A stretch of DNA of 64,000 nucleotides from an uncultured Clostridia bacterium (lineage in GTDB: Bacteria; Acidobacteriota; Blastocatellia; UBA7656; JADIYM01), in contig CAZQBW010000001.1 in NCBI GenBank assembly GCA_964591515.1, positions 36,316 to 100,315 on the forward strand, written 5' to 3'. Made by a program: the position numbers and the translations under genes. The notes below the pieces were generated by a model that was not told the DNA's origin, ran no database searches, and saw only the letters and a program-made list of their open reading frames with translations. Of the stretch, positions 6,676-51,557 are shown piece after piece. How positions within the stretch are numbered: position 1 is the stretch's first letter; each line of letters begins with the position of its first letter.

Positions 6676-6797
6676 TCCGGGGGCGGACGGAAAGAAGTTG
6701 ATGTGGGTTCCGCGTTAGCGGGGGACCGAACTTCGCGATTGTCGGCCATGACCTACGGATCGTCAACACGGGGGGAGGGATTGAAGTTGGAGATGCC

Positions 6798-6900
6798 GGC
6801 GTTGCCGTACAGAGAACACAGAGGCACGGAGAGCACAGAGAAATCTGTTCATCAGGACTCTGTGTTCCCCGTGCCTCTGTGCTCTCTGTACGGCAACGCC
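6798..6900. repeat. CACAGAG-family palindromic intergenic element (about 103 bp, 32-bp arms with 31/32 complementarity)
   Basis: ggcgttgccgtacagagaacacagaggcacgg ... ccgtgcctctgtgctctctgtacggcaacgcc, read directly in sequence. Sits in a divergent promoter region. Confidence 0.6.
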
Positions 6901-10038: not shown

Positions 10039-11577
10039 CTACCGCTGAAAGAGGAATTCCGGTGACGATGCTCCGTCCGGGTTGAGAACACGGACCGAGA
10101 CCGTCTCACCGGCGGGAATCGCCGTCGCCCAGGCGTTTTTCGACAGAGCCTTGTGGCGTGACTTCACCTTCGTATCGCGAACCAGCTCGCCGTTCACCAT
10201 GATCAGACTGCCGGCGCGGATGTCATCGCCTTCGACGATGAGCTTCGAGCCCTGGACTCGAATACCGGAAACGACCGGCGTCGAAGGTTCGCGGTGCTCG
10301 GCATCGATGGTCAGACCGAGGAAGCCGATGCACATCTCGTCCGTAGTCTTCTCGCCCCACGAGACGTCGACCGGCGGAATCGTCGGCTGATTGTGGTTCA
10401 GCTCAGAATTGTCGTACCGGGCCGTGAGCTCGACCCTCGTCGCACCTGGAATTGCCAGAGGCTGCCGGTATTTGTACGAGCCTTGCCAGTGGAAGTCCCA
10501 GTTGTCGATGAAGATGAGACACTGGCGCTCGCCCGTGACGAGGTTCTGGGCCGTCAGCTGCATCTCGCGTCCGAGCAGGTGCATATGCGGCGAGATGTAC
10601 TCAACCTTGACGTTCACCAAGGGCGGAAACGTGAACGACGCCGTAACCGGATAGTCACGCGCGTTGGCGGGAATCGTGAAGTTCTGATTGATAACCGGAA
10701 GGATGATCACGTCCTGGTATACCGGCGACCTCGCGAACTTGAGCGCGATCGACGTCGTGTCGACCTCATCCTGACCGTTCGGCTTGTAATGCACCTGAGC
10801 GACGATGCGAGCGCCCTTCGGCACGAGATAGCCAGTTCCATCACGGAGCACCTGTGGCGGAGCACCCGGTGCCCATCCGCCAAGCGTTCCTACAGTGGCG
10901 AAGCCCGGACCGCCGAAACTCGTGTAGCCGGGACCCGGATCCTGCTGATCGAGAGTAACGGAGATTCCGGTTGCGTCGATGTAGAGGATGACGTGGTGCA
11001 CGATCTTCCGATTGCTCGGGCTCACCTCGACGGCCGTGATGAATCGGTCCGCATCGAAGTTCGTCGGTATCGTGAAGCAGCGATAGATGTCGGCCGTAGC
11101 CGATGCCGGAACCCGGTAACCGCTCGGGACCGTCTGAAGTTCGATGTCAGGCACGCCGAGTTTCCACCCGTTGTCGAATACGAGCGACTCGGGCAGATCG
11201 ACTGGATTGCCCTCGGGAGCACCAGCATCCGCCCACTCCGCGAGCGTCGCGATTTCTTCATCCGTCAGGCCACGCTTGTTGGCGAAGTCGCCGCATCCGT
11301 CGACCGGCTTCCAGGGCGGCATCGCGCGAGATTGCGTCTCGGTCCGGATCGCTTCGGCCCACGGCGCGGCATCCTCGTACGTCATCAGACTGAAAGGAGC
11401 GATGTCACCCGGGTGGTGGCACGTCTGGCAGTTCTGCTGGAAGATCCGCACGACCTGATTCGAGAACGTTGCCGGCTCTGCAGGTGCTGCAGCCTGCGAA
11501 GTGGAGCGATCGGAAACGGCATACGCGCCCGCGGCGAGCGCCAACGCGAACGTGAGCAGACCGAGCGAACGTTTCAT
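10039..11577 (-). CDS. Secreted cytochrome c (PSCyt-like CQTCHH) fused to a copper type-II monooxygenase-like (PHM/DBH-like) domain
   Basis: Start placed at internal MKRSLGLLTFALALAAGAYA signal peptide. CxxCH plus MPPW motif. Motifs HHVILY and SPHMHLLGREM resemble Cu-monooxygenase His clusters. Confidence 0.6.
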   Translation of the reverse strand: MKRSLGLLTFALALAAGAYAVSDRSTSQAAAPAEPATFSNQVVRIFQQNCQTCHHPGDIAPFSLMTYEDAAPWAEAIRTETQSRAMPPWKPVDGCGDFANKRGLTDEEIATLAEWADAGAPEGNPVDLPESLVFDNGWKLGVPDIELQTVPSGYRVPASATADIYRCFTIPTNFDADRFITAVEVSPSNRKIVHHVILYIDATGISVTLDQQDPGPGYTSFGGPGFATVGTLGGWAPGAPPQVLRDGTGYLVPKGARIVAQVHYKPNGQDEVDTTSIALKFARSPVYQDVIILPVINQNFTIPANARDYPVTASFTFPPLVNVKVEYISPHMHLLGREMQLTAQNLVTGERQCLIFIDNWDFHWQGSYKYRQPLAIPGATRVELTARYDNSELNHNQPTIPPVDVSWGEKTTDEMCIGFLGLTIDAEHREPSTPVVSGIRVQGSKLIVEGDDIRAGSLIMVNGELVRDTKVKSRHKALSKNAWATAIPAGETVSVRVLNPDGASSPEFLFQR

Positions 11578-11817
11578 TACGAAAACCCTGTATCGGCGTG
11601 GGATGAGCGCGCGAACCGCGGCGCCCGAACTATACTCCGGACCCGACTCCTGGCTCAACGCCCGGGCCACCCCAATCCGATTTGTCTGGTGAATGCGTAG
11701 ACGGGTCGTTCAACCGACTGAGAACGACCCTGCAACTTCGGAATCTTCATGAGGAACTCCTGTCGCCGGTCGTGACTCAATCGCGTCCTCACCGCGAATG
11801 GAGGCGTCACGCAGGTC

Positions 11818-12156: not shown

Positions 12157-13290
12157 ATGCAGCCAGAGCAGCCGTCGAGTCCGTCCGGCAAGGTGCCCGC
12201 GACGCTCCAGAAGGAGGTCCGTGCAAAACTAGCATCGCTCAACATCAAGCTCACGCTTGCGGCAGAGGAGCTCAAGAAGGAGACGAATCCGGACCGCATC
12301 CGGGAGTTACGAGACCTCTTGTACGAGCTGAAGGCCGAAGCGCAGACGGCAGTCGAAAAGTACCGATGGGCGCAGAAGCTCTATGCGGAGGACTCAGGCG
12401 GAGCGGGGTCTGCAACTGAAGCCGACAACTCCGTCGACGCCGCTTTCGATGGAGTCCTGGTTTTCGGCGATCTCGACCTGTTGTCGCCTCCGCCCCAGGA
12501 TCTCATCAGCGCTGCAGCCGGAAAGTCGACTGACCCGTTGAAACGGCGTGAGACTGACATCGACGACGACGTGGCTGTTGTCTTCGACATCGAGGCAGTA
12601 CAGGACCAGCCGGGTGCGGCCGCCAGGGCATTCGACGACCTCGACGCCTCGGCAGACGTGTTCGATTCGCTGACCTATTCAATCGAGCTCGACGCACCGG
12701 TCGAGGAGGCCGGTGGCGCTCGATCCTCCGTGGCGGGTCGCGGCGGTCGCATCGGCCAGGCTCTTGCGTATGCCGTGTCCGCGTCCCAGGCAGCGGGTGT
12801 TGCGCTGGCAGCGCCGTTGGCGGCAGCATCGCTTGCGATCGAGGGCGGTGCGGACGAGAACGCGACAATCGCGGCGGCGCTCCACGACGTCTGCGAAGGA
12901 CCGGGTGGCGGAGAGCGGCAGCAGGAAGTCATTGACGAGTTCGGGCCTGCCGTTGGCGGCCTGCTCGAGTGGTGCGGGTGGATGAAGTCGATCGATCCGT
13001 GGGAACAGCGCGACCGCGCCTGGTTCACACACTTGCAAACCGCGCCTCCCGATGCGTTCCTCGTCTCGATCTGTTACCGGATCGCAACGTTGTCGGCGAT
13101 CGAGCGTGCGCGTCGCGCGCTCGGCGTCGAGGCGCTTGGCGAATCGGACAAACACCGCGAGCGGTTCTTCTGGAGCCAGCGCGCAATGCTCAAGGCCTAC
13201 AAGTCGAAGGCTCGTGGTCCGCTCGTCGACGAATGGCAGCGTCTCGTCGACGAGCTCGAGACCGGATCTGCCGGGAAGCCCGCCGTTTAA
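12157..13290 (+). CDS. Hypothetical protein: coiled-coil N-terminus plus C-terminal HD-like phosphohydrolase domain
   Basis: ALHDVCEG (HD-like) and surrounding helical region. Weak. Confidence 0.45.
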   Translation: MQPEQPSSPSGKVPATLQKEVRAKLASLNIKLTLAAEELKKETNPDRIRELRDLLYELKAEAQTAVEKYRWAQKLYAEDSGGAGSATEADNSVDAAFDGVLVFGDLDLLSPPPQDLISAAAGKSTDPLKRRETDIDDDVAVVFDIEAVQDQPGAAARAFDDLDASADVFDSLTYSIELDAPVEEAGGARSSVAGRGGRIGQALAYAVSASQAAGVALAAPLAAASLAIEGGADENATIAAALHDVCEGPGGGERQQEVIDEFGPAVGGLLEWCGWMKSIDPWEQRDRAWFTHLQTAPPDAFLVSICYRIATLSAIERARRALGVEALGESDKHRERFFWSQRAMLKAYKSKARGPLVDEWQRLVDELETGSAGKPAV

Positions 13291-13351
13291 TGGTCAGAAC
13301 ATGGGTCAGGTCCTGATCGGAACCGCGAGCGACCGGGTGGATGGGGCAGAA

Positions 13352-13514
13352 GGCGTTGCCGTACAGTGTTCACAGAGGCACAGAGCACGCAGCGAGACAA
13401 TCATCAGAACTCAGAGTTCTCGGTGACTCCGTGCTCTCCGGACGGCGACGCCTTCTGCAGAGGTGTGCTGAAACGCCAGAGAGCACAGAGCCTATGACGA
13501 CTCTGTGCTCTCTG
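13352..13514. repeat. CACAGAG-family palindromic element (degenerate about 100-bp copy plus a perfect 14-bp-stem hairpin cagagagcacagag/ctctgtgctctctg)
   Basis: Read in sequence. Lies between convergent genes, so may act as a bidirectional terminator. Confidence 0.55.
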
Positions 13515-13554
13515 TGAGCGGAGCGTGCCGCTGTCTGAAGCGCCTTGCCTCGAC

Positions 13555-14361
13555 CTACTTGAAGCCAAGCTTCGTTCGCAGCTTGTCCTTGACGATGACA
13601 CCCTTGGCGAATGCCGCGTCAGCAGTCTCACGCACTCCCACGAGAGTGAACGTATGCCACTTCGCCTTCGCGTCGGCGAGCATCGCCTTGACGGCGGCGA
13701 GCTCTGCTTCTTCCGCAGCCACATTCACCTTTCTTTCCTTCGCGGCGTCCATCAATCCGGTTGCCCAGACAACGATTCCGTTGGCGCGATCGATCGCTTC
13801 CATGGCCGTCAGCGCGGAGGCCTCGATGTCCTTGCGATTCGGCAGGAGGTTCCGTTCGATGCCGTGGCACTGGGCGCACAGATTCGCTGCTTCAGGCGGG
13901 AACGAGGCGACGGTTGACGCCATGTGCTGATGGCACGTCGCGCACGTCGGTCCGAGGCCGGCGGCCTTCAACTTCTGGTAATGCGTGCTGCCGGTGAATG
14001 CCGTCGTAATCGGCTCGTGGCAGGCGCCGCAGGTCTGCGGGAGGTTGAGGGAATTGGTCTTGCTCTGCGCTTCTACTGACTTGAGTACGCCGACGTGGGA
14101 CTTTTCCTTGCGGTCCGTGGTCGGGTCCCCGCCGTGGCATTTGTCGCAACTCACGGCCGTCTGCATGTGCCGCGAGAGGTGCCACTCGAGATAGTGGTTG
14201 GTCATTCCCTCGAACTTGAGGTCTCTGGAATGACACGAAACGCACGAGTTGCCCTTGAAAGCCGCGAGTTCGTCCTGAGGCGAGTCGGTGACAGGTCTCG
14301 CGAACGCGATGACTCCGAGGAACAATGCGGCGAAGGCGACGACGACAAAGGTCTTGAACAT
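13555..14361 (-). CDS. Pentaheme c-type cytochrome (secreted or membrane-anchored)
   Basis: Five CxxCH motifs (CVSCH, CDKCH, CGACH, CATCH, CAQCH). Start placed at MFKTFVVVAFAALFLGVIAFA. Confidence 0.8.
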   Translation of the reverse strand: MFKTFVVVAFAALFLGVIAFARPVTDSPQDELAAFKGNSCVSCHSRDLKFEGMTNHYLEWHLSRHMQTAVSCDKCHGGDPTTDRKEKSHVGVLKSVEAQSKTNSLNLPQTCGACHEPITTAFTGSTHYQKLKAAGLGPTCATCHQHMASTVASFPPEAANLCAQCHGIERNLLPNRKDIEASALTAMEAIDRANGIVVWATGLMDAAKERKVNVAAEEAELAAVKAMLADAKAKWHTFTLVGVRETADAAFAKGVIVKDKLRTKLGFK

Positions 14362-14793
14362 GGCGCTTCTCCCATCGAGCGGCTCGACGCCTGCGCCGTG
14401 GCTACTCAGATGTGGCGCCGATTCCTGCCGAGCCTGCGCGATGGAAGGTGCAACCTGCGTGCCAAGTTGACGATTTGAACGCCCCAGACTGGGGCAGCCC
14501 GAAATCGCCGCGTTCCCCCGCATCCCGCCGTCCTTCAGGTATTTCGCTCTGATCGAATCTGCGCCATATGACGAGCCCACGTGCGGAAATGCACCCGGCT
14601 CGACGCTTCATTTCTGAAGGCGTCCGGTGCCTGGCATCCGGCCACCGCGGGCGGACGGCGCCGGCGACCCGACTTCCACCATCTTGAAAGGATCTCAGTG
14701 GAGAATGCGAACGATCCGCTAGTCCATGGCGCAGAGATCCCCCGGGCCGTCAGAGTTTCCGCGATGTCGATCGTTAGTTCCCTCTGACTGAGA

Positions 14794-17064
14794 TCACGGA
14801 ATCGTCGCCACGACGGCTGCCGAGTATGCGGGACCGGGATTGGCGATCCGCACTTCCACTTGTGTTCCTGCCGGCACTGCCGCCCGTTCGATTCGTACGC
14901 GGAAGCTCTTCTTGCTCGTCCGCTCAACCGACATCAATGGAACGGCAGTGCCCGAGCCGTCCGCGAGCCTCACATCGACCGTCGCGTCGTCGAGTACGTA
15001 CTTTCCGCGCACTGTCAGCGTGATGTTCGATCCGTCAGCCACGGTTACTTTCTTGACGAGCGGTCCGATCAGCAGCAGCGGAACGACCGCAACGGATGGA
15101 TCCGTCCCCGGATTCCGGACCTGTACAACCACGCTGCCAGGCGTGTTGCGAACCTCCGGAATGTCATCGAGCGCAACTCTCAGCGTCCGCATGTCGACGA
15201 ACTCAGTCGGCGCGTCGATCCCGTTCAGGACCGCTACTGACCCCGCGACGAACAGCCGCGATGCGTCCGTCGATGCGTTGTTCAGAGTCAGGACGATACC
15301 GGGCTCGCCAGCGTAGATCTTCTTCCTGTCGGGAGCGACAGTCACCGACGTAAGGAGCGGTGAGCTCTGAGCTCCGCGACCGGCGCGCTGGCTGAACCAC
15401 TTTCCAGAGATGATGTACGACTCGCCAGCCGCGTCCAGTCTGTTCCCGGCGCCATCGCCGCCCATTGCATTCGGAACCAGGTCGATGAATCCGTCTCCGT
15501 CGACGTCACCGGTCGCGAGTGAGTACGTGAACATGTCGCCCGCATCAGGCGCCACGATCTGGAAGATCGGCACCGACGGCGGATTGTTCGCCGTGTCGAC
15601 GATCGCCGGAAATGGCTGCTCCGAGCCGAAGATGACTTTCAGGTCGCCGGCGGATTCGCGTCCTGCGCCAGCGTTGATCGGACTTCCGAAGAGAATGTCG
15701 TCGAGACCGTCGTCGTCGATGTCGGCGATACGTAGCGAATCCGCGCCAATGTCGCCGGCGTTCTCACCGTAAATTGTCAGCGCCTTCGCGTTTGCCGCGT
15801 TCCTGAGATCGATCCGGTCTCCGCGTCCGAAACGGCTCCCCCAGACGATGTAGCCGATACCCGCTGCATTCCTGCCCGGCGCATCCGCAACGAGGGCGCC
15901 GATCGCCAGTTCATCGCGCCCGTCGCCGTCGATGTCGCCGGCATCGACGTCTTCCCCAAAGTACCCGTTCGCCTGATCGCCATACACGATGGTGGTGTCG
16001 TTCGGCGGATTCGAAAGCTGAATGGCGGATGGCCACGCCGCGCGACCGTAGAGCACAGTCACCTCGCCAGCGTTCTGCCGGTCGTTGTTCGGGCCGTCGC
16101 CGCCGCCCTGGCCGATGCCGTTGTTCACCTGGCCGTAGCCGGTATACGCAGCCCCCGCGCGCGAGACTCCGGCCGAGCAGGCGATGTCTCCGAAACCGTC
16201 GCCATCGAAATCGCCGGTGGAGATGCACGAGCCGAAGTGATCCTGGTCATCGAGTCCATAGACTGCGGTCACGTCGAGACTGCTCAGATCGGAACCTCGG
16301 GAAAGGTCTATCCGGGCCGGAAAATCCTGACCGCCTGGAATCATGTAAAGGATGCCCCGGGCGGCGCCGGCCCCGCTGCTGCTCTTCGCAAGGTCCGCCG
16401 AGACGAGAATATCGGCGATATCGTCACCGGTGACGTCGCCGGCGTGAACCCAGAATCCCAGCCGGTCGCCCGGGTTCGCTCCGAGAATCTGAATGACGGA
16501 GGGTCCCGGATTGACGAGGTCGATCGTTGGAGGAAACTCGGGCCGGCCGATCACGACATATGCCACGCCTGCCTGCGACCGATTCGAGTCGTTGTCGAAT
16601 CCGTCTCCGTTCTGCGCACCAGTCAGGATATCGGCGATCCCGTCACCGGTGACGTCGCCGAGCGAGATCTCGGTTCCGAGAAAGTCGTCCGGGCGAGCGC
16701 CGAAGATCGAGCACGTGCCCGCAGGAGCCTGGGCCATGTCCACAACCGACCCGGTCAGCGCATCCGCGGATCCGAAGGCCACGTTGATCTGACCGGCAGC
16801 ACGGCGCCCGCCGGACGGTCCCGACGGTCCGTAGAACGCGGCAAGCGCAACGTCATCGAAACCGTCGCCGTTGACATCGCCAGAGCCGACCGGCATTCCG
16901 AGGAGCGATCCTTCGGAGTAGCCGTTGTAGACCGTCATCTGTCCCATCTGGCTGGTGTCACGAGTGTCCCAGATCCGAGTGTAGATGGCGGATGCCGGAA
17001 TTGCCGGAATGGACCAGAGAACGATGGCGGGCAGGACGAGGCTTGCAATGTAGCGTCGGTTCAC
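14794..17064 (-). CDS. Secreted FG-GAP (integrin-alpha-like) beta-propeller protein with C-terminal Ig-like (IPT/TIG-like) domains
   Basis: Signal peptide. Repeated GDVNGDGFDDV, GDVTGDGIADIL, GDFDGDGFGDI, GDIDGDGRDEL, GDVDGDGFIDLV motifs. Confidence 0.8.
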   Translation of the reverse strand: MNRRYIASLVLPAIVLWSIPAIPASAIYTRIWDTRDTSQMGQMTVYNGYSEGSLLGMPVGSGDVNGDGFDDVALAAFYGPSGPSGGRRAAGQINVAFGSADALTGSVVDMAQAPAGTCSIFGARPDDFLGTEISLGDVTGDGIADILTGAQNGDGFDNDSNRSQAGVAYVVIGRPEFPPTIDLVNPGPSVIQILGANPGDRLGFWVHAGDVTGDDIADILVSADLAKSSSGAGAARGILYMIPGGQDFPARIDLSRGSDLSSLDVTAVYGLDDQDHFGSCISTGDFDGDGFGDIACSAGVSRAGAAYTGYGQVNNGIGQGGGDGPNNDRQNAGEVTVLYGRAAWPSAIQLSNPPNDTTIVYGDQANGYFGEDVDAGDIDGDGRDELAIGALVADAPGRNAAGIGYIVWGSRFGRGDRIDLRNAANAKALTIYGENAGDIGADSLRIADIDDDGLDDILFGSPINAGAGRESAGDLKVIFGSEQPFPAIVDTANNPPSVPIFQIVAPDAGDMFTYSLATGDVDGDGFIDLVPNAMGGDGAGNRLDAAGESYIISGKWFSQRAGRGAQSSPLLTSVTVAPDRKKIYAGEPGIVLTLNNASTDASRLFVAGSVAVLNGIDAPTEFVDMRTLRVALDDIPEVRNTPGSVVVQVRNPGTDPSVAVVPLLLIGPLVKKVTVADGSNITLTVRGKYVLDDATVDVRLADGSGTAVPLMSVERTSKKSFRVRIERAAVPAGTQVEVRIANPGPAYSAAVVATIP

Positions 17065-17170
17065 GAGGTGCGAGTCTCCTTACAAGGTGTATCCGGGATG
17101 ATAGCAGCTTGCCGAAGGACGGCTTCACGACCGTATCCGCAGGAGACAAAAGGGCCTTCGGCCGGCTTGG

Positions 17171-17198
17171 TTGACAAAGTCCAGAATGACCGTATACT
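17171..17198 (+). promoter_or_regulatory. Near-consensus sigma70 promoter TTGACA-N16-TATACT upstream of yceD-rpmF-plsX-fabD-acpP-fabF
   Basis: ttgacaaagtccagaatgaccgtatact, read directly. Confidence 0.45.
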
Positions 17199-17218
17199 TC
17201 TCGCTTTTTGGCAGGCAG

Positions 17219-17746
17219 ATGGAAATCGATCTTATTCACCTTGAACCGGATGGTCAGCATCTTCGAATTGCGTTCGGGGCCCTCGAGTTCGGCGCGCAAC
17301 GGAAGAGGGAGCTGCTTCGTCCGCTTCGGGCCGAGATTACGGCGTGGGTGAGGCCTGAGGGTGGAGTTGTTCGGGTGACGGGTGAGATCGAAGCCACGGC
17401 CAGTGCCGAATGCGATCGTTGTTTGAAACCGCTTGAACTTGCCCTGGTCGGAACCTTCGACCAGCGCTACGTCCACGAAGCCGCCCCGAGTGGCGTCGAC
17501 GTCGACGAGACCGAGCTCGACCCGACCGAGCTCGACATCGAAGAGCTGCCTTCGGGTGTGCTCGACGTCCGCGAGGTGGCCCGGGAGCAGGTCGCACTCC
17601 TCGCCCCGATGCACGTGCTCTGTTCCGAGTCTTGTGCGGGACTTTGTCCGACGTGCGGTGGGGACCTGAACGTGACGACCTGCGGATGTGAATCCGAGCA
17701 GATCGATCCGCGCTGGGAAGCGCTAAAGCGGTTGCAGAATTCCTGA
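17219..17746 (+). CDS. yceD: YceD/DUF177-family protein (23S rRNA accumulation protein)
   Basis: C-terminal Cys cluster CSESCAGLCPTCG...CGC. Position immediately upstream of rpmF. Start moved to internal ATG to clear the promoter. Confidence 0.7.
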   Translation: MEIDLIHLEPDGQHLRIAFGALEFGAQRKRELLRPLRAEITAWVRPEGGVVRVTGEIEATASAECDRCLKPLELALVGTFDQRYVHEAAPSGVDVDETELDPTELDIEELPSGVLDVREVAREQVALLAPMHVLCSESCAGLCPTCGGDLNVTTCGCESEQIDPRWEALKRLQNS

Positions 17747-42395: not shown

Positions 42396-44873
42396 CTACT
42401 GCAATACGACCGGTGCGGTGAAGATGCCAGAGATGAAGACTCGAACAGCAACCGGCTTTGCTTGAAGGAGTTGCGGTAGTCGCGAGTCTTTGCCGACCAG
42501 TCGGCTGCTCGTTCCGTCCGTCCCGACAAAACGCGGCGGAGCTTTCACTGATCCGAGGGCAGTCTCGCCAACGAAGATCTCCCCACCCGTAGCCGGCAAG
42601 CGCAGTCCGTCGACCGTCAGCTTCTTGCCGCTCGTGGCGAACCTGGCGGATCCAAGAACTGGAGCAAACGGATCCAGCGCGTCCACGGCGGCTGACGATG
42701 CTGTCGCCATCGATTCGATTCCCTCTCCATCAACGAAATCGACCCGCACAGTAGCCGATGCGAGCATCAGGCCATTCACGATTGCTGGCGCGGCCGACTG
42801 ACCGAGCACGAAAGCTGACTTGGATCCCGTGGCCCAGTCGCCGTCCCCGTCAAGATCCACTCGGAGCACGGCGCCGATCGCATCGCGATCCGGCTGAGCA
42901 TCTGCCGCGTGTGCGTCTGCGTCGGAATCCGTTCGAGCTCGCAGACGAAGCGTCCCCGTTCCGGAGCGCGGATTCTGCATGATTCCGATCTCGCCAGACG
43001 ACGTCACGCCAAGATCAACGGTGCCGGAACCATCCCGATCCACCCATACCGCCGACGTCAGGTCCGCAGGCAGAGAGAAGCGCGCCGTCGCGTCGTCGAA
43101 TCCGTTCGCACCGCGATTGCGAAGCACGTGGATGCCGTCCTGCCCACCCTCGACGAGCAGGTCCGTATCGCCGTCGGCATCGTAATCCGCCGGCAATACT
43201 CGAGTTCCCCCCGCAAGCCCCCCGATCGCAAGCTCCGACGTAACGTCGAGAAAACGAAGTTCGCCTCCAACACCGGCGAGCACCAGATTCCCTGCCAGAC
43301 GCGTCGCAACGACGTCGAGCCATCCGTCTCCGGTCACGTCCGCCCACGCAACGGCCGACGCGGGAAAGCTCACGGCAGATCCGAACGCCGTCGACTCGTC
43401 AACCATTCTTCCTTCGGTGTAGCTATAGACTCGAAGTCCGGCTCCGGTCGCGACCAGCAGCCGCGGTCCCCCGGCAAGCCCCGTTACCGGCCCCGTTGGC
43501 GCGCTCCACGTCGACGAAGCATCGACGAAGCCGTCCGCCGTGTTCTTCAGTGCGAGCAGTCCCGTCGACCCGCCAGCCACGACATCGAGACGACCGTCCC
43601 GGTCGACGTCCATCCAGACGACCGCGCGCGGGTCCGCGAATCGGGGAAGAGATGTCGGCGCGCCGACACTGGTGAACGAACCGAGCCCATCGTTACGCCA
43701 GATGCTCGTCGCATTGACAGCGAGCACCGCGAGATCCGGAGTCCCGTCGCCATCGGCGTCGCCCCAGGCGAGCGCGCGAACATCGCCGGGAAGCGTCAAT
43801 CCAGAGGCCTCGGTCGATTCGGTGAACGTCCCGTCGGCCTCCTGCAGGTAGAGGAGGACGCCTCCTGCGCTGCGGCCAACCACGACGTCCTGACGGCCGT
43901 CGCCGTCGACATCGGCCCAGGCCTGTCGCTGAAAGTCGCCGCCGAGAGGCGCCTCCGCGATTGGCACCGCCGTGGACAGCCCAAGCGGCGCGATCGTGAG
44001 GTTAGACCGCGACTGATCGGTTCGCTCGGTACCACCAGTGTCCACTACAACGACCCGGATCCGGGCATCGGTCGTGGCGAGGGCCTCGGGAATGGTCCAC
44101 ACGAATGACCGTGCGGTCGCCGGCAGATTGTCTGCCAGGACGGACGGGTAATTCTCGCCGCCGTCCGTCGAGAGCAGAACACGGAAATAGGATGGCGTGG
44201 CAGAGTCGCCATCGGTTGCGCTCCAGCGAATGACTACGCGCTCACCCGATCCGAGCGGACTGCCAGTCGTCGGCGATTCGAGTCGGACGCGAACAAAGCG
44301 TGTTAATCCATCGATAGTTACGCTCGTTGTGTAAATGTAATCGTAGAAGTCCGTGTGGTCACCGTTGGCCGCATTTCCAGCTGCGTAGAACGTCACGGGT
44401 CCGAGGTCGGTCGATGGCGCTTTCCAGACCATTGACCAGGATACTTCTCCGCGTGATCCGTCATAGGTCCCAGTCAAGGTGTGCTGTGCGTAATACCGGC
44501 CAAGACGCTGCGAAGGCCCGAGTGCCGAGACCGAGAGCGTGCTCGACTGGAAGAAGCCCGCGGCGTGACCGAGTTCGTCGATGGCCGTGATCTGGAATCC
44601 CCACTTCTTGGCCAGCGGATCCGAGACCCTAACGGTCACTGGGTACGTCTGGCCGGGTGTGTACTGTGTCGGAAGTCCCTCGATCGCCACACGGCCGGGG
44701 CCGGAATCGAGTGGATAGGTCCGGTGGCACGTATTGCACGCCACCTCGCTGGGCGCACCGGTCCGCTCGAGAAAGGGTCCGGTCGACAGCGCTTCCACCG
44801 ACTCGGACGACGACATCAGTACGACCGCGGCTACCGCAAAGACGAGAAGGGCGAGTGACTTCAGTAGTTTCAT
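42396..44873 (-). CDS. Secreted FG-GAP/VCBS-repeat protein with N-terminal CxxCH motif (CNTCH)
   Basis: Signal peptide MKLLKSLALLVFAVAAVVL. Repeated D.DGDG..D motifs (DVDGDGRQDVVVG, GDADGDGTPDL, DVDRDGRLDVV, DVTGDGWLDVV, DYDADGDTDLL). Confidence 0.75.
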   Translation of the reverse strand: MKLLKSLALLVFAVAAVVLMSSSESVEALSTGPFLERTGAPSEVACNTCHRTYPLDSGPGRVAIEGLPTQYTPGQTYPVTVRVSDPLAKKWGFQITAIDELGHAAGFFQSSTLSVSALGPSQRLGRYYAQHTLTGTYDGSRGEVSWSMVWKAPSTDLGPVTFYAAGNAANGDHTDFYDYIYTTSVTIDGLTRFVRVRLESPTTGSPLGSGERVVIRWSATDGDSATPSYFRVLLSTDGGENYPSVLADNLPATARSFVWTIPEALATTDARIRVVVVDTGGTERTDQSRSNLTIAPLGLSTAVPIAEAPLGGDFQRQAWADVDGDGRQDVVVGRSAGGVLLYLQEADGTFTESTEASGLTLPGDVRALAWGDADGDGTPDLAVLAVNATSIWRNDGLGSFTSVGAPTSLPRFADPRAVVWMDVDRDGRLDVVAGGSTGLLALKNTADGFVDASSTWSAPTGPVTGLAGGPRLLVATGAGLRVYSYTEGRMVDESTAFGSAVSFPASAVAWADVTGDGWLDVVATRLAGNLVLAGVGGELRFLDVTSELAIGGLAGGTRVLPADYDADGDTDLLVEGGQDGIHVLRNRGANGFDDATARFSLPADLTSAVWVDRDGSGTVDLGVTSSGEIGIMQNPRSGTGTLRLRARTDSDADAHAADAQPDRDAIGAVLRVDLDGDGDWATGSKSAFVLGQSAAPAIVNGLMLASATVRVDFVDGEGIESMATASSAAVDALDPFAPVLGSARFATSGKKLTVDGLRLPATGGEIFVGETALGSVKAPPRFVGTDGTSSRLVGKDSRLPQLLQAKPVAVRVFISGIFTAPVVLQ

Positions 44874-44925
44874 GATCGCCGGGAATGGTACCACGACGCG
44901 TCGCGAACGAACCTCGGTGCTCAAG

Positions 44926-45048: not shown

Positions 45049-45597
45049 ATGGCGATAAAGGTTGAACATCAGTCCTCCATCGAAGTGAAAGATCTGGACT
45101 CTCAGGTGCAGGCGGCCATCGAGTGTCTGCCGATCGAGCACCTACGCGGATTCAGTCGTATCCGGTTCGTCGACCGTATCGAGGATTCCCGACTTCCGCA
45201 GGACCTTCTCAAGGGTCTTCCGGCGCTCTACCGTCCAAAGCAGCCAGGGCACGCGTCCGCTTTTGGCGACGTTGCTCTGATGGTGCTCCAGCCGCAGGAC
45301 CTGAACTGGTTCAAGCGGCTGGCGGCGAAGGCACAGTTGAAGGCGCTGATCGCGCAATCGGTGATGTCGCTCGTGGCTCAACATTACCTGGTCACTGTTT
45401 CGAGCAAGAAGAAGAAGGGTCCGGAGATCGAGCGGGCCGTTCGCGAGTACGTCGAGCGATACTTCAAGGTGTGGCGGGGTCGTCAGTCCGGCTGGCGGGC
45501 CCGTCTTTTCCGTCCGCTCGTGCCCTACCTCGAGAAGTGGCAGAAGTCCGCTCGCAAATACCAGCTCGAGCAGGCGCGCAAGAAAGCCGGGAAATAG
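45049..45597 (+). CDS. Hypothetical basic protein (182 aa)
   Basis: ORF only. K/R-rich C-terminus. Confidence 0.4.
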   Translation: MAIKVEHQSSIEVKDLDSQVQAAIECLPIEHLRGFSRIRFVDRIEDSRLPQDLLKGLPALYRPKQPGHASAFGDVALMVLQPQDLNWFKRLAAKAQLKALIAQSVMSLVAQHYLVTVSSKKKKGPEIERAVREYVERYFKVWRGRQSGWRARLFRPLVPYLEKWQKSARKYQLEQARKKAGK

Positions 45598-45742: not shown

Positions 45743-47716
45743 TCACACGGCGACGTACTTTGACCCGGCGCGCTGCAGGCGCAGAACCGTGGCGGATCCG
45801 TCCGGATTCGTGACCTGAAGGAACCTCACAGCACCGGAAGGCCAGAATTGGCTGAGCTTTAGCCCTCCAATCTTTCCTTTCTGCGTGAGCTTCATGCCAG
45901 AACCGGCGACCTTCGCCGGCGAGTCGAAAGAGACCCAGGCGCCAGTCGGATCCGTAGCCGAGACCGTGGAGCCCTGCGCAAAGAGCCGGGTTGCCCCAGT
46001 GATGACCCGAAGTCGAAGGCCCTCATTGTTCACGACCTTGTCGCGATTGATCTCCGCGCCGGGAGCCATCACGTCTCGAGCATCGGACGCCATCACCACT
46101 CCGAATGCCGGTCCAATCAGATCGGGATTTGGCCGCCCGTGCCCGGTTGTGATCCATCCCTTCAGGTCGACGAGCTCACGCGGCGCGCGACGGTAGACAA
46201 GCTGCGCAGATATCGATACCGGATCAAAGCCGTCAGGGAGCGCGAAAGCATATTCGCTCCAATCCGTGGCACCTGCGGGAATTCGATTGTCCGAGACGAT
46301 TCGTGTGGCTTCCGTGAAGAAGACTCCTGATTCGTTCTCGTTGCCGAAGATCTTTGCGAACGCCTTGCCGGGCTGCCCTGCATAGTAGCCCTGTGCAGGA
46401 TCTCCAACGCCACCTATCGAAGGAACCGTCTCGGATCCTTCTGCAACGAATTCGAGTCCAGAGCCGAAGGCGTCCGATGCTCTGACGAGCAATATGGCGT
46501 GCCGGATCGCCTGTCCCCCCGGAAGGTCGTGCCCCGTACGGTCGTTCGTCACCGCAATCGAGACGCGAAGTGTTGATCCATCACGTCGTCCAATCGCACG
46601 TAAGGTCGCGGCATTCTGGACAAATTCGACTGTAGTACCCTCGAAATCGTGCGAGTAGACCTGCGACGGATCTCGAGTGACTGGCTGGTACTGCTCGCAC
46701 ATTGCACGATCGCCCTTCGGCGCCATGTGGCAATCCATGCACGTCTTCATCCCGGCTCCCGGGACCGCGTACGGGCTCGCAAGCCACTCGGACCAGGTCT
46801 CTTCGCTGACCACACTGCCTTCATCGAGGTAGTCGAGGTCGAAATCGTGGTCGTTGTTGTCTTCGTGGCACGCAGCACACAGTAGTCCGGTAGTGTGAAT
46901 CTTGCTGTAGGAGGCCCGCATCACGCCCGGGAAGTTCGGCGCTGAATCCGGCAGCGGGCCGAAAATCGTCTCGCGCGACGAGCGAGCCATCATCATTCCC
47001 TGCACGCCCGGCAGCTTGACGTTCGAGATGTCGTAGGTCTTGTGACAGACGTCGCAGGACACGCCGAATTCTCGGGCAAATGGAGTGATCTCGGAGAAGT
47101 CGGTGTTGTCTCCAGGATTCTTCGCGGAGTCCATCGGCGCGTGGCACTCAGCACAGTCTCCCTTGAACCCGGGGTGGACGTCCTTGTAGACGAACCCATT
47201 CCCTCCGGTTCCGGGTGTGCCTTGTCCGTCGTACATGTCGCGAACCCAGGTGTTCTTCGCGGCATTCCTGTGCGCCGAGTCCTGCCAGTACTCGAACAGC
47301 GTACCGTGGCAGAGGCGACAGTCCTGCGGGCTCGTGAACTCGTAAGTCGGGTCGTCGGCAAGCACCGCCGGAGCGAGCGCCAGCTCGAGGCCAGAATCGC
47401 CAACGAGAACCGACAGTTTCGCGTTGTAGTAGCTCGCGTGGGTCGCCTCGCCATTCAGCGCTCCGGCCGCGATCGTGACTGCGGCGCCGGCTTCTCGCGT
47501 GGTACGTAACGTGAACGTGCCATCGGCGCCCGACGTCGTCTGCTCGGTAAGGCTCGCCTGAATGCGGACGTCGGCGTTCGGAATCGGCGTGCGAGTTGCC
47601 GAGTCGATCACCTTCCCGGTGATGGTCTGCTGCGGCGCCGCGAACTCGACGGCCCAAGGCCCGAACATCAGTCCGAGCCAGAGAATGGCGAAGGCAAAGA
47701 ACGAGACTCTCTTCAT
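45743..47716 (-). CDS. Secreted multiheme cytochrome c (five CxxCH) with N-terminal carboxypeptidase-regulatory-like domain
   Basis: Signal peptide. ITGKVIDSATRTPIPNADVRI. Heme motifs CRLCH, CAECH, CDVCH, CAACH, CMDCH. Confidence 0.8.
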   Translation of the reverse strand: MKRVSFFAFAILWLGLMFGPWAVEFAAPQQTITGKVIDSATRTPIPNADVRIQASLTEQTTSGADGTFTLRTTREAGAAVTIAAGALNGEATHASYYNAKLSVLVGDSGLELALAPAVLADDPTYEFTSPQDCRLCHGTLFEYWQDSAHRNAAKNTWVRDMYDGQGTPGTGGNGFVYKDVHPGFKGDCAECHAPMDSAKNPGDNTDFSEITPFAREFGVSCDVCHKTYDISNVKLPGVQGMMMARSSRETIFGPLPDSAPNFPGVMRASYSKIHTTGLLCAACHEDNNDHDFDLDYLDEGSVVSEETWSEWLASPYAVPGAGMKTCMDCHMAPKGDRAMCEQYQPVTRDPSQVYSHDFEGTTVEFVQNAATLRAIGRRDGSTLRVSIAVTNDRTGHDLPGGQAIRHAILLVRASDAFGSGLEFVAEGSETVPSIGGVGDPAQGYYAGQPGKAFAKIFGNENESGVFFTEATRIVSDNRIPAGATDWSEYAFALPDGFDPVSISAQLVYRRAPRELVDLKGWITTGHGRPNPDLIGPAFGVVMASDARDVMAPGAEINRDKVVNNEGLRLRVITGATRLFAQGSTVSATDPTGAWVSFDSPAKVAGSGMKLTQKGKIGGLKLSQFWPSGAVRFLQVTNPDGSATVLRLQRAGSKYVAV

Positions 47717-47725
47717 TGATTGAGG

Positions 47726-50038
47726 CTAGGGAGCGACGGCCATCGCAGGGCTAGAATAGGCCGGACCTGGATTGACGGCCCTGACGGTGAGAACGGCACC
47801 TGACGGTTGACCTGGAATCGTCGCCCGAAGCTTCGTCCCGCTCTTTCGAACGACCGAGATCGTCGGGATTTCCACACCGCTCGCGTTGGCTACCGTGACA
47901 GTGGATCCTGCGAGGAAGTCAGCTCCCTTCACTGTCAGCCTCAGGTTTGCTCCCTTCTTCTGCAGCTTGATGAACGTTATCGACGGACCCCTGAGCGTTA
48001 TCGCCGAAACGCCGATCGACGCATCGGATCCGGGGTTCTTGACCCGAGCCGTCACGAGTCCAGGCGTATTGCGCACCTCGGGTGCGTCATCGAGGCTGAC
48101 ACGCAGTTCCTTGTTGTTGATGAAGGTCGTCTGTACCTCCACGCCGTTCAGTATCGCCTTCGCTCCGGCCACGTACAGACCGTCCGACTGATCGGTTTCG
48201 CAGAGCAGCGTCAACTGAATTCCAGTCTGTCCCGCGTAGTACACCGTCGACGCCGGTGACACCGTCACCCTCGTCAGGCAGGGAGTGCCGGCGGGCCCGC
48301 GACCGGCGCGCAAACTGAATTCCTTTCCCGACAGGATGTACAGCTCGCCCGCATCGCGGCAGCAGTTGCCGAGTCCGTCACCGCCCATTCCATTTGGCAT
48401 GAGATCGGTGAAGCCGTCGCCGTCAAAGTCGCCGACAGTAAATGAGTAGGCGAACATGTCGCCCGGATCCGCGGCGATCACCTGATATACAGACACGGAG
48501 GCCGGCGGATTCGCCAGGTCGACGACCGTCGGCAGCCGGTCAGCATCGCCGAAGATCACCTTGATGTCGCCGGCTTCGGGGCGAGATGCCGGATCGTAGG
48601 TCGGACTCGCGAAGATCATCTCGTCGAGTCCGTCGGCATTGACGTCTGCGAGCGCGATCGTGTCTGACCCGATGTCACCTGCGGCCTCGCCATAGATGCG
48701 CGTCATTCGCGGTTCGGTCGTTCCGAGAGCGCGAGTGTCGACCCGCTCGCCCCGAGATATGAACGTACCCCAGAAGATGTAGCCTACGCCGCTGTCGTTT
48801 CGCGGCGGAACGCCCGGAGTTCCGGACGGCGCGCTTGCCGTGAGTGCTCCGACCGCAAGTTCGATCTGGCCGTCGCCGTCGAAGTCGCCGACGCGCACAT
48901 CCTCGCCGAAGTGATCACCGCCGTTCTGCCCGTAATAGATCGCCACGTCGGCTGTCGGGTTCGACAACTCCATGGTCGCCGGCCAGTTCGTCCGCCCGTA
49001 GATGATGTAGACCTCGCCAGCCTCGGTCCGGTCGTTGCTGGGTCCGCCGCCGCCGCCAAGTCCGTTGGAGCAGAATGCGCCAGCAGGCTCTTCTACCTTT
49101 GCCGTCGGAAACGCGCCGGAGCGGGCCAGGCCGGCGGAACAGACGATGTCGTCGATTCCGTCCCTGTCAAAGTCACCTGAAGTGATACATGAGCCGAAGT
49201 GGTCACAATCATCGACACCATAGATGATCGAAATGTCCAGACTTGCGAGTTGACTTGAGCTTCCGAGGTCGATCTGAGCCGGTAGAGTCGGCCCGCCGGG
49301 AATGATGTAGAGCTTTCCACGTGCTGATCCGATTCCAGCTGAGCTCTTCGCAAGGTCGGCTGAAACGAGGATGTCGTTCGTCCCGTCGCCGTTCACGTCG
49401 CCGTACGACGGCCAGAATCCGCAGCGTTCGCCCGCAACTGCGCCAATGATCTCGGTCACACCCGTCATCGGAGTGCCCGCAAGGTCAATCGTCTCGGGCC
49501 AGGTCGTTCTGCCGTTGATGACGTAGAGCTTGCCGGCCAGCGGACGGCTCGAATCGGTGCCTAGGCCATCGGCGTTCTGCGCCCCGACGAGAATGTCCTC
49601 CAGTCCGTCGCCGGTCACGTCGCCGGTCTCCACCTCGTTTCCAAGAAAATCGCCCGCTCGTGCGCCAAAAATCGTCGTGTGAGTACCGGGGGCCGCCGTC
49701 AAATCGGTCACGGTGCCGGAGATGGAATCCGGGGCGCCGAAATGGACCTGTAGCTCGCCTGCACGCGGTCGCACGTTGCCCGGTCCCGAGGGAGCGAGAA
49801 ATGGAGCGAGGATGGCATCGTCATCGCCGTCGCCGTCGAGATCGCCGGAAGCGCACGGCATCCCGAGGGTCGTGCCGTCCGGGTCGGAGTTGTAGATCGA
49901 CCTCTGACCGGTTTGCGCGGTGGTCTTGATGTCCCAGATCATCGTCGTCGCGCGCTCATCGGCTCGAGCCTGTCGCGCTGGTGCAATGACAGCAAACGCG
50001 AGGCACATCGCAACCGCAATTCCCGCAAGTCTTTTCAT
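47726..50038 (-). CDS. Secreted FG-GAP beta-propeller plus IPT-like protein, paralog of 14794..17064
   Basis: Start at MKRLAGIAVAMCLAFAVIAPA. Co-linear similarity to the 14794..17064 product (IWDIKTTAQTGQRSIYN..GDLDGDGDDDAILA vs IWDTRDTSQMGQMTVYN..GDVNGDGFDDVALA). Confidence 0.8.
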   Translation of the reverse strand: MKRLAGIAVAMCLAFAVIAPARQARADERATTMIWDIKTTAQTGQRSIYNSDPDGTTLGMPCASGDLDGDGDDDAILAPFLAPSGPGNVRPRAGELQVHFGAPDSISGTVTDLTAAPGTHTTIFGARAGDFLGNEVETGDVTGDGLEDILVGAQNADGLGTDSSRPLAGKLYVINGRTTWPETIDLAGTPMTGVTEIIGAVAGERCGFWPSYGDVNGDGTNDILVSADLAKSSAGIGSARGKLYIIPGGPTLPAQIDLGSSSQLASLDISIIYGVDDCDHFGSCITSGDFDRDGIDDIVCSAGLARSGAFPTAKVEEPAGAFCSNGLGGGGGPSNDRTEAGEVYIIYGRTNWPATMELSNPTADVAIYYGQNGGDHFGEDVRVGDFDGDGQIELAVGALTASAPSGTPGVPPRNDSGVGYIFWGTFISRGERVDTRALGTTEPRMTRIYGEAAGDIGSDTIALADVNADGLDEMIFASPTYDPASRPEAGDIKVIFGDADRLPTVVDLANPPASVSVYQVIAADPGDMFAYSFTVGDFDGDGFTDLMPNGMGGDGLGNCCRDAGELYILSGKEFSLRAGRGPAGTPCLTRVTVSPASTVYYAGQTGIQLTLLCETDQSDGLYVAGAKAILNGVEVQTTFINNKELRVSLDDAPEVRNTPGLVTARVKNPGSDASIGVSAITLRGPSITFIKLQKKGANLRLTVKGADFLAGSTVTVANASGVEIPTISVVRKSGTKLRATIPGQPSGAVLTVRAVNPGPAYSSPAMAVAP

Positions 50039-50339
50039 TTGATTCGCATCCCCAGTTGTTTGACCGGCCGAATTGTACCAGTCGGATTCAAGAGGCGGCC
50101 AAGAATGAAAGAGATACGCGGCCCTGTGCCTTCGCGGATGACCTGACACCTGGCGACGGCGAGGGGCGGCACACGCAATTGCGCACGTTGCTTTGCGAAC
50201 TGCGTTCGTCCACAGAGGCACCGCGGGACCGAGAAAGGTATTCTCTGTCGTCGTGCCGCTGCTGCCGCGCGGACTCTGACCAGGGATAGTGTTCGGGAAT
50301 CCCGGTATCCGCCGATAGACGCGGCTGATGCCAACGATT

Positions 50340-51557
50340 CTAGATCTTCGGGCCGACGCCGCTCAGGTTTCCCCGCTTGCTCCAGGGACCGGTCAGACTT
50401 TTTGCAGCCCACACGGCGCCGACTCCGTCGAGGACGAGAACTTCCCCCGGATTAGTCCACACTGGCCTCGAAAGCGGAGCGGGCGCCTGCAGTGCAATCT
50501 TCCAATCAGGTCGACCGGACTGGTTGACCGAAAGGTTTCCCCGGGCGCCCGCGTGTCCGACAACCCACGTGAGTCCACCGTCCGCCGGGCCGATTGCGTC
50601 AAGATCCTGTCCAGCCAGGACCGGGCGTGGCAGCCAAGTCTGTCCACCGTCACGCGATTCGATGACAAGTCCGCCATCCGCGGCTATCCACGCTTGCGTT
50701 GCCGATGCAAAGGCAATGTCATTTAGACTTGCGCCCGAGAGCGTTGCTCCACGCGCGTGGTCCTCACCATTTGCCCCGCCGAGAATCACGGTCGAGCCGA
50801 CGATTGCGGCAAAAATCCGATCCGAGCGCCAAGCCGCGATTGCGGCACCGGCTATCCGAGTGCCAAGTTTCCAACCGGTAGAGTCGCCCACGAGAAGCGC
50901 CGATGACGGCAGCGGCTCGTTCCATCCCCGAATCACCGCCCACGCCCCGGCTGCGCTCACGCCTGCGACTTCCACCGCGCGCGGACCCGAGATGTCGGAC
51001 ATCGGCGCGAGGTCCGCCGTCGTTGTCCAGGTCCGTGCGGAATCCCGTGACTCGGCCACGATCCCGGACCGCAACACGCAGGTCCACGTACCGCCCGGTC
51101 CTACTCCGACTGCTACTGCCTCGTCTCCGTTACTCCCTACCGGGCCCTGCTGAAGCCAGGTGGCTCCACCGTCCCCGCTCGTCATAGCGCGCCCACGAAC
51201 GACCGCCACCAGGAGCTGGCCCGATACGCCGACGATCGGACGCGGTGCCCAGGCCCGCCGGCGGGCTGGCCCACTCTGAGCGACGATATCCGCATACGAC
51301 CGTCCCGTGACCGGAGCGACTCGCGGCGCGTCGGGAGCCTTCGGTCCTCCTTGCTTCTGGCCTCCCTTGTTGTTGGCCTTTTTGGCCTTCGGCTTCTGCA
51401 CGGTCTCGGGACCTTCGGCCCCGGCTGGAGCCGCGAACAGAACGGCCAGCGCCGCGACCATGAACAAGCTCAACGCGAGGTGGAAGGGACGATTTCTCCG
51501 AGAGCAGTTCTGCCGATGCTCGCGGGTTGCCACTTGACTGGATTCCAGGGGTTTCAT
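50340..51557 (-). CDS. BNR/Asp-box repeat beta-propeller protein (Ycf48-like), membrane-anchored
   Basis: Asp-box motifs SGDGGATW, SRDSARTW, SRDGGQTW. N-terminal TM segment. Confidence 0.6.
   Translation of the reverse strand: MKPLESSQVATREHRQNCSRRNRPFHLALSLFMVAALAVLFAAPAGAEGPETVQKPKAKKANNKGGQKQGGPKAPDAPRVAPVTGRSYADIVAQSGPARRRAWAPRPIVGVSGQLLVAVVRGRAMTSGDGGATWLQQGPVGSNGDEAVAVGVGPGGTWTCVLRSGIVAESRDSARTWTTTADLAPMSDISGPRAVEVAGVSAAGAWAVIRGWNEPLPSSALLVGDSTGWKLGTRIAGAAIAAWRSDRIFAAIVGSTVILGGANGEDHARGATLSGASLNDIAFASATQAWIAADGGLVIESRDGGQTWLPRPVLAGQDLDAIGPADGGLTWVVGHAGARGNLSVNQSGRPDWKIALQAPAPLSRPVWTNPGEVLVLDGVGAVWAAKSLTGPWSKRGNLSGVGPKI

Follow-up and report, generated by a model that had tools for sequence, protein, structure and literature searches.

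A 64,000-nucleotide (nt) stretch, here called the window, of contig CAZQBW010000001.1 (positions 36,316 to 100,315, forward strand; assembly GCA_964591515.1), deposited as an uncultured Clostridia bacterium and assigned by GTDB to Blastocatellia within the Acidobacteriota, carries two genes for large secreted FG-GAP beta-propeller proteins, each with a gene for a multiheme cytochrome c downstream. An earlier note on this DNA had read both arrangements as copies of one paralogous two-gene cassette, in which a propeller of ∼760 amino acids (aa) is immediately followed by a pentaheme cytochrome, and had proposed a dedicated, previously undescribed module for electron transfer or mineral interaction. 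We retained the names cassette 1 and cassette 2 and compared both with related loci. Cassette 2 is a propeller-cytochrome pair not previously described, whose cytochrome belongs to a known fold family. The cassette 1 region consists of an ordinary secreted FG-GAP gene beside an unrelated pentaheme gene. The initial observation was real but had been over-read. The four genes concerned are as follows.

14794..17064, minus strand: propeller 1, 756 aa; signal peptide, FG-GAP beta-propeller, two C-terminal immunoglobulin-like (Ig-like) domains; clade A
13555..14361, minus strand: cytochrome 1 (cyt1), 268 aa; signal peptide, five CxxCH motifs, C-terminal helical region
47726..50038, minus strand: propeller 2, 770 aa from the ATG at 50038; architecture as in propeller 1; clade B
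45743..47716, minus strand: cytochrome 2 (cyt2), 657 aa; signal peptide, five CxxCH motifs; starts 9 nt past the propeller 2 stop codon

The two minus-strand propeller genes were as described, with products of 756 and 770 aa that begin with signal peptides (MNRRYIASLVLPAIVLWSIPAIPASA in propeller 1) and a Pfam FG-GAP match on propeller 1 that covered 6 stretches (E = 6e-30). For propeller 2, translation probably does not start from the GTG at 50221, the ATG at 50038 being the codon that precedes the signal peptide. Propeller 1 contains DxDxDG loops of the Ca2+ type, and the D and G loop residues were invariant in the family alignment. The choice-of-anchor-Z repeating Ig-like domain (NCBIfam NF058597; cut-off, 30 bits) was found in propeller 1 (31.7 bits) and propeller 2 (39.4 bits). 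An AlphaFold2 model of propeller 1 was all-beta (predicted local distance difference test score, 88.5; predicted template modeling score, 0.83), and Foldseek ranked integrin alpha ectodomains first among its PDB matches (E = 6e-22); a profile of the propeller family likewise matched integrin alpha propellers (E = 5e-11). Integrin alpha and bacterial integrin-like FG-GAP proteins share with the window propellers an FG-GAP propeller with DxDxDG loops, followed by Ig-like, "thigh-like" domains. However, the window propellers are only 12 to 16% identical to integrin alpha, lack its transmembrane tail, have no recognized beta-subunit partner, and carry C-terminal domains of the choice-of-anchor-Z type. 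A general Pfam scan of the neighboring open reading frames (ORFs), which included no search aimed at integrin-beta, gave no match to the integrin-beta family.

The propellers also proved to be paralogous, with 51% identity across 743 aligned residues. Their family comprises ∼40 full-length members, which a neighbor-joining tree divided into three groups, i.e., clade A with propeller 1, clade B with propeller 2, and an outgroup. By this tree, clades A and B of the secreted propeller are products of an old duplication. Apart from Gly and Asp, the residues invariant in the family alignment included W32, R201, W205, R302, E334, E371, R398, R469, K476, and Y514. Searching genome contigs with a profile of the propeller alignment returned only distant FG-GAP proteins (from Streptomyces and others), via generic FG-GAP peptide patterns.

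The presence of a downstream pentaheme cytochrome was borne out in both cases: each same-strand ORF has exactly five CxxCH motifs, and no ORF of the window other than cyt1 and cyt2 contains more than one. "Immediately followed" fits cassette 2, with its gap of 9 nt, but not cassette 1, where 432 nt intervene. The claim of a paralogous cassette did not survive. The best BLASTP segment between cyt1 and cyt2 reached 28% identity over 120 aa (E = 4e-4), and the two belong to different families, differ in size, and are not paralogous as a pair. Since the propellers are paralogous and the cytochromes are not, it was the propeller gene that was duplicated, and not the cassette. Estimated post hoc, the chance that both multiheme genes would lie directly downstream of the two paralogs among ∼55 genes is ∼7e-4.

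Conservation of cassette 2 and the family of its cytochrome

Five clade-B loci were recovered, with propellers 79% (L006 and L007) or ∼61 to 64% (L050, L051, and L052) identical to propeller 2. In all five, a cyt2 ortholog (655 to 666 aa) comes next after the propeller gene, in the same orientation. The gap between the two genes, 9 nt after the TAG in the window, is ∼9 to 30 nt in L006, L007, L050, and L051; in L052 it is 79 nt, and the cytochrome there is spread over two ORFs, probably because of a frameshift. Five further propeller/cytochrome pairs, recognized from contigs of the same size (35817, 15452, 10666, 8450, and 10912 nt), are circumstantial, and the outgroup clade (P0038/P0140) is linked only by same-size contigs. 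Judged by gene order across these loci, the clade-B pair is a genuine lineage-conserved two-gene unit, and propeller 2 and cyt2 are most likely co-transcribed. The adjacency posited by the earlier note was thus found in relatives of cassette 2 (L006, L007, and L050 to L052), where it is part of a fully syntenic region, but not in relatives of cassette 1 (L001 to L005), which are described below.

From the N to the C terminus, cyt2 consists of a CarboxypepD_reg/transthyretin-like domain, a five-heme helical domain, an Ig-like beta-sandwich with a TGHxxPxG loop, and an extra C-terminal Ig-like domain. Its CxxCH motifs, at C133, C188, C221, C280, and C326, were invariant in 23 homologs. Cytochrome c552, Geobacter ExtKL/Gsu2801, and cytochromes of cable bacteria have been united in one "PHC" family with a heme cap and an Ig-like stem, which is related to the archaeal nanowire AvECN (PMC11976967). 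Like these proteins, cyt2 has a five-heme helical domain followed by an Ig-like beta-sandwich, with an overall fold match to PHC c552 of Thermochromatium tepidum (5ZE8). A profile of the cyt2 core matched 5ZE8 with an E value of 3.4e-7, MccA with 1.4e-5, and MccSep (9WT8) with 7.5e-4. At 19% identity to c552, cyt2 differs from it by the added N-terminal CarboxypepD_reg domain and C-terminal Ig-like domain, and among the described PHC members it alone is linked, in a putative operon, to an FG-GAP propeller.

ExtKL is MccSep, a pentaheme selenoprotein polysulfide reductase whose active site comprises the heme-ligating Cys239 and by selenocysteine (Sec) 325 in a D-G-U-P loop (bioRxiv 10.1101/2025.11.18.688581). 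cyt2 has the same cap-and-stem layout as MccSep/Geobacter ExtKL (9WT8) and could be aligned with it over the region that starts at the first heme motif and reaches to the Ig-domain loop. In the hidden Markov model (HMM) alignment, however, "AGHSIPDG-U-P" of MccSep stands opposite "TGHDLPGG-Q" of cyt2, so that Gln takes the place of Sec325, and the family consensus has Val there. The position of C239, the distal ligand of heme 2, reads S-V-I/V-S-E within a stretch of low alignment confidence, and in the cyt2 family alignments (A2 and A3) invariant Cys residues were confined to the five CxxCH motifs, which leaves no conserved heme-ligating Cys like that of MccSep. Genes for an ExtI-type porin or for ExtM/N are absent from the vicinity of cyt2. 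The NCBIfam model for ExtKL (NF040886) matched cyt2 with an E value of 1e-13 and a score of 50.5 bits, far below its cut-off of 250; with the Sec/Cys site missing as well, an assignment of cyt2 to MccSep/ExtKL proper was rejected. As far as these alignments go, cyt2 has the PHC fold without the MccSep catalytic site, and would therefore by default be read as an electron carrier.

Members of the cyt2 core family occur in Planctomycetota, Myxococcota, Gemmatimonadota, and Proteobacteria with ∼40% identity over residues 30 to 545, and a homolog at 84% identity is named from a Blastocatellia-type acidobacterial metagenome-assembled genome (MAG), in keeping with a source of the window that is most likely an acidobacterium of this type. 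The C termini vary by lineage (A2 columns ∼600 to 768) and include Cys/Arg-rich tails resembling MYXO-CTERM, a FlgD-Ig tail, and dockerin-like repeats; sorting domains of the type IX secretion system (T9SS) are annotated on other family members. In the Blastocatellia-like clade, the C terminus of cyt2 is an Ig-like domain with an NPDG motif at its end. The signal peptides, together with the MYXO-CTERM-like and T9SS-annotated tails of cyt2 homologs in other phyla, suggest a surface or extracytoplasmic location of cyt2 and the propellers. On three metagenome contigs, the PHC-type core lies within ORFs of ∼1500 to 1800 aa (L059, 4024-8562; L062, 4000-9321; L074, 2533-8013), which suggests large multidomain fusion proteins.

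Where flanks were available, the clade-B block had the order ParA, ParB, BNR/Ycf48-like protein, propeller, cytochrome, opposite-strand 182-aa gene, ∼800-aa FG-GAP_3 protein, and lpxD. Its further members in the window are as follows.

50340..51557, minus strand: BNR/Ycf48-like secreted propeller, the immediate upstream neighbor of propeller 2 at every related locus; gap of ∼300 nt
45049..45597, plus strand: 182-aa basic protein, encoded between cyt2 and the gene of the 842-aa propeller; position shared by every relative examined (L050, L051, and L052)
42396..44924, minus strand: third secreted propeller protein, ∼825 to 842 aa; N-terminal choice-of-anchor-V domain, then an FG-GAP_3/VCBS propeller; conserved as last member of the cassette 2 block

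Because of the ∼300-nt gap, the BNR/Ycf48-like gene may be transcribed separately from propeller 2. The 182-aa protein matched no family. In the 842-aa protein, a CxxCH motif within the choice-of-anchor-V domain is conserved in the orthologs.

Cytochrome 1 and its variable spot

The ORF listed for cyt1 extends from 13555 to 14580, but the ATG at 14361, the first codon of the signal peptide MFKTFVVVAFAALFLGVIAFA, is most likely the start of the gene. From this ATG, cyt1 comprises 268 aa, the length of its homologs, and the following two elements flank it.

14362..14793, minus strand: spacer between propeller 1 and cyt1, 432 nt; no Rfam match, no consensus promoter or terminator
13477..13514, minus strand: hairpin with a perfect 14-bp stem and a 10-nt loop, ∼40 nt past the cyt1 stop codon; candidate terminator without a following T-run

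An Rfam scan of the whole region from 13000 to 17500 likewise found nothing. The homologs of cyt1 form a compact family of ∼268-aa proteins, the sole named member of which is from an Acidobacteria MAG. cyt1 stayed below the cut-offs of the DmsE-family decaheme model TIGR03508 (34 versus 192 bits) and of the NrfB model PRK11659 (24 versus 184 bits), and its weak likeness to NrfB/DmsE would reflect generic heme packing only.

Cassette 1 is flanked by yceD-rpmF-plsX on one side and, on the other, by an HD_4 gene and a gene for a cytochrome c/Cu-monooxygenase-like protein. Two syntenic relatives, both from wastewater metagenomes, differ from the window within these flanks. In L004 (89% identity), an opposite-strand 186-aa gene separates the propeller gene from cyt1, and a gene for an M14 peptidase follows cyt1; in L005 (75% identity), the M14 peptidase gene alone is present and the cytochrome is absent. 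This variable spot, from propeller 1 to the HD_4 gene, comprises 13269-13545 and 14465-14793 in the window, 4723-5726 and 6647-8725 in L004, and 10352-12151 in L005. Both the M14 peptidase gene and the 186-aa gene of the relatives are absent from it in the window. By blastn, the ∼100 nt directly upstream of cyt1 travel with cyt1, and the remaining 329 nt of the spacer, on the propeller side, are unique to the window, with no counterpart in the 89% relative L004.

The more distant clade-A orthologs (L001 to L003; 52 to 58% identity) have no cytochrome; the next gene lies on the opposite strand. These loci are from the same two genomes as clade-B loci, and L003 has two tandem copies. The tandem propellers of L003 (10001-14639; GCA_902826415.1) lie near an exosortase (EpsH) gene and a VIT-domain gene, in a genome with 4 family members. 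The arrangement of cassette 1 is common only to species-level relatives (clusters at ≥90%), as judged from propeller 1 and cyt1 on same-size contigs. The cyt1 homologs at 75% (L055) and 42% (L053) identity occur in unrelated, propeller-free contexts. The L053 homolog (5067-6801) lies 40 nt past a universal stress protein gene, with an HSP20 gene nearby, which hints at a possible stress-linked context for this small family.

Since the adjacency is missing from the relative at 75% identity and broken by another gene in the one at 89%, and since cyt1 homologs elsewhere occur without propellers, cassette 1 is, on the loci compared, a recent juxtaposition of unrelated genes and not a conserved unit. 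In the same comparison, cyt1 stands out as an accessory, independently mobile gene that arrived recently in the variable spot. Its composition gave no sign of recent foreign origin (GC content, 0.608 versus 0.618 for the window).

Propellers and c-type heme in other lineages

A metagenome scan for cyt2 homologs yielded 79 distant loci. The HMM of the propeller family detected an FG-GAP neighbor at 2 of them, and less strict criteria, either motif counts or a phmmer search with the 842-aa protein, singled out 8, of which Pfam confirmed 7 as FG-GAP, FG-GAP_3, or ASPIC. At six of the confirmed loci, the FG-GAP gene directly adjoins a multiheme gene of the same orientation, before it at some loci and after it at others. 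Around the distant cyt2 homologs, FG-GAP-type genes occupied 6 of 115 adjacent slots, compared with 2 of 218 non-adjacent ones (Fisher P = 0.022). The association of FG-GAP genes with cyt2 is thus recurrent, but far from obligatory.

Fusions provided a further connection. Outside the full-length family, 15 of the 77 propeller homologs listed are fused to a cytochrome domain (13 to cytochrome c and 2 to PSCyt1). In three Chloroflexota-type fusions that were scanned, cytochrome c lies at residues ∼620 to 720, taking the place of the Ig-like domains of the window propellers; two Binatia fusions carry PSCyt1 after the propeller. The fusions (P0094 and P0102 to P0117 from Chloroflexota/Anaerolineae, with a class-I cytochrome c domain at the C terminus, and P0059 and P0067 from Binatia) are 33 to 40% identical to the window propellers and bear generic names only. 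The functional link between propeller and cytochrome envisaged in the earlier note thereby gained modest support from fusions (15/77) and slot enrichment (P = 0.02), although not from the unconserved cassette 1. Fusions, adjacency, and the conserved CxxCH motif, which are independent but modest, hint that this propeller type works with c-type heme.

In the literature searched, no paper linked FG-GAP proteins with multiheme or c-type cytochromes, except for a note on CRTAC1-like FG-GAP genes within clusters of hydrazine-synthase homologs (PMC12758564). The pairing may therefore still be called undescribed, whereas the cytochrome is a member of a described fold family (5ZE8; PMC11976967).

A 543-aa secreted protein is encoded at 10039-11670 (minus strand) of the window; its domains are a cytochrome c with a single heme, a copper type II monooxygenase-like domain, and a C-terminal Ig-like domain. 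An HMM built from domains of the propeller family matched this C-terminal domain with an E value of 2e-8, which makes it a homolog of the propellers' own final domain; on NF058597 the protein scored 21.6 bits, under the cut-off of 30. In L004, its gene adjoins a SCO1/CusF copper-chaperone gene. The idea, first formed by eye, of one C-terminal domain common to all five secreted proteins was dropped. An HMM trained on all five had agreed with it, but this test was circular; the independent HMM supported the 543-aa protein only and gave no support for cyt2 or the 842-aa protein.

Possible roles of the propeller-cytochrome pair

We favor the view that the clade-B propeller and its PHC cytochrome are a real two-gene unit of an extracytoplasmic carrier and a docking or scaffold partner, and that the genes of cassette 1 are chance neighbors; we would put the probability of this at roughly 55%. 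Propeller 2 and cyt2 would be co-transcribed, exported, and assembled into a complex outside the cytoplasm. In this complex, cyt2 would serve as an extracytoplasmic electron carrier lacking the Sec/Cys catalytic site of MccSep/ExtKL, and propeller 2, with its Ca2+-loop propeller and Ig-like stalk, would be its Ca2+-dependent docking or scaffold partner, positioning cyt2 either on the envelope or on a redox substrate that is insoluble or polymeric. The architecture, paralogy, family assignments, and conservation pattern are observed; co-transcription, interaction, localization, and the electron-transfer role are what we infer.

Several observations weigh against this proposal. L050 and L051 are syntenic from SSB to lpxD, and the syntenic 18-kb neighborhood includes parA, parB, miaB, and lpxD; because the whole neighborhood is syntenic, adjacency at 61 to 64% identity could be inherited gene order and is weaker evidence of coupling. 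About 95% of the adjacent slots at distant cyt2 homologs hold no FG-GAP gene, and a Planctomycetota member of the cyt2 family stands alone, so that the cytochrome does not need a propeller. The enrichment test itself was rough, with home-made gene calls, a P value of 0.02, and some loci that probably come from related lineages. Finally, scans of both cassettes for consensus promoters and terminators returned nothing useful, so that transcription units are not definable by sequence; the hairpin after cyt1 was the sole clear signal.

The conserved synteny also lends credibility to a reading without any coupling, which we consider rather unlikely. The propellers would then be secreted Ca2+-dependent adhesins or lectins and the cytochromes independent periplasmic carriers, with cassette 2 held together by gene-order conservation near parAB. 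In favor of this, the 18-kb neighborhood with its housekeeping genes is syntenic in L050 and L051, the majority of distant cyt2 homologs have no FG-GAP neighbors, and clade-A propellers have no constant neighbor. On the other hand, four loci retain the same-strand gap of ∼9 to 30 nt, and in L052 the two genes still lie together, 79 nt apart; beside cyt2 homologs of other lineages, FG-GAP genes of different subfamilies are enriched, and both gene orders occur; and about one-fifth of the homologs listed outside the full-length family are fused to a cytochrome c domain. At the opposite extreme, both cassettes could be one dedicated module of propeller and multiheme cytochrome, duplicated as a unit and serving extracellular electron transfer or mineral interaction. 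Both multiheme ORFs of the window do lie downstream of the paralogs, the species-level relatives in the clusters at ≥90% identity carry propeller 1 and cyt1 on same-size contigs, and related propellers in other phyla are fused to cytochrome domains. Yet the cytochromes differ in family and size, the adjacency of cassette 1, across its 432-nt spacer, is gone at 75% and interrupted at 89%, clade-A orthologs have no cytochrome, and cyt1 homologs have no propellers. By these comparisons the reading is largely refuted for cassette 1, and as a whole we regard it as very improbable.

A further alternative, in our view quite improbable, would make the propeller a catalytic or substrate-binding redox subunit and the cytochrome its dedicated electron donor or acceptor. 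It would account for the class-I cytochrome c that replaces the Ig-like domains in Chloroflexota homologs, for PSCyt1 in Binatia, and for the CRTAC1-like genes inside the hydrazine-synthase-homolog clusters, and the invariant residues other than Gly and Asp (W32 to Y514) could line a pocket. The structural matches of propeller 1, however, are ligand-binding integrin heads, and no cofactor-biosynthesis genes lie nearby. Moreover, we know of no FG-GAP propeller with a redox cofactor or catalytic activity, which counts against such a role. In quinohemoprotein alcohol dehydrogenase, cd1 nitrite reductase, and hydrazine synthase, a beta-propeller is likewise coupled, genetically or covalently, to c-type heme, but these propellers are of different superfamilies, and the FG-GAP type is without a known cofactor or catalytic site.

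The cassettes resemble the porin-cytochrome conduits MtrCAB and ExtHIJKL in encoding exported multiheme cytochromes, cyt1 being weakly DmsE/MtrA-like and cyt2 weakly ExtK-like. In contrast to these systems, neither cassette has a gene for a beta-barrel porin or a lipoprotein decaheme cytochrome, and the partner is a propeller of a soluble type. We rejected a conduit of this kind for lack of a porin gene: the neighbors encode BNR, FG-GAP, 182-aa, and HD_4 proteins, and none is porin-like or a decaheme. A more elaborate arrangement, which we think unlikely, would join the clade-B propeller, the PHC cytochrome, and the heme-tagged VCBS propeller of Blastocatellia-like Acidobacteriota in a porin-free, not yet described surface redox complex, with the propellers as obligate docking partners that keep the cytochrome on an electron acceptor or donor of insoluble or polymeric nature; the Chloroflexota and Binatia fusions would then be its single-chain versions.

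The present result is mainly corrective, in that just one "cassette" of the two proves to be a real unit, with a function that we infer. Acidobacteriota are abundant in soils and activated sludge and have many multiheme cytochromes without known substrate (PMC8100337). If the proposed coupling of the clade-B propeller with cyt2 is true, the conserved operon of a PHC cytochrome and an integrin-like binding module would be a candidate for wiring electrons to external or polymeric substrates without an Mtr/Ext porin, and, if the fusions known from other phyla are considered as well, would represent the first redox-linked role for bacterial FG-GAP propellers.

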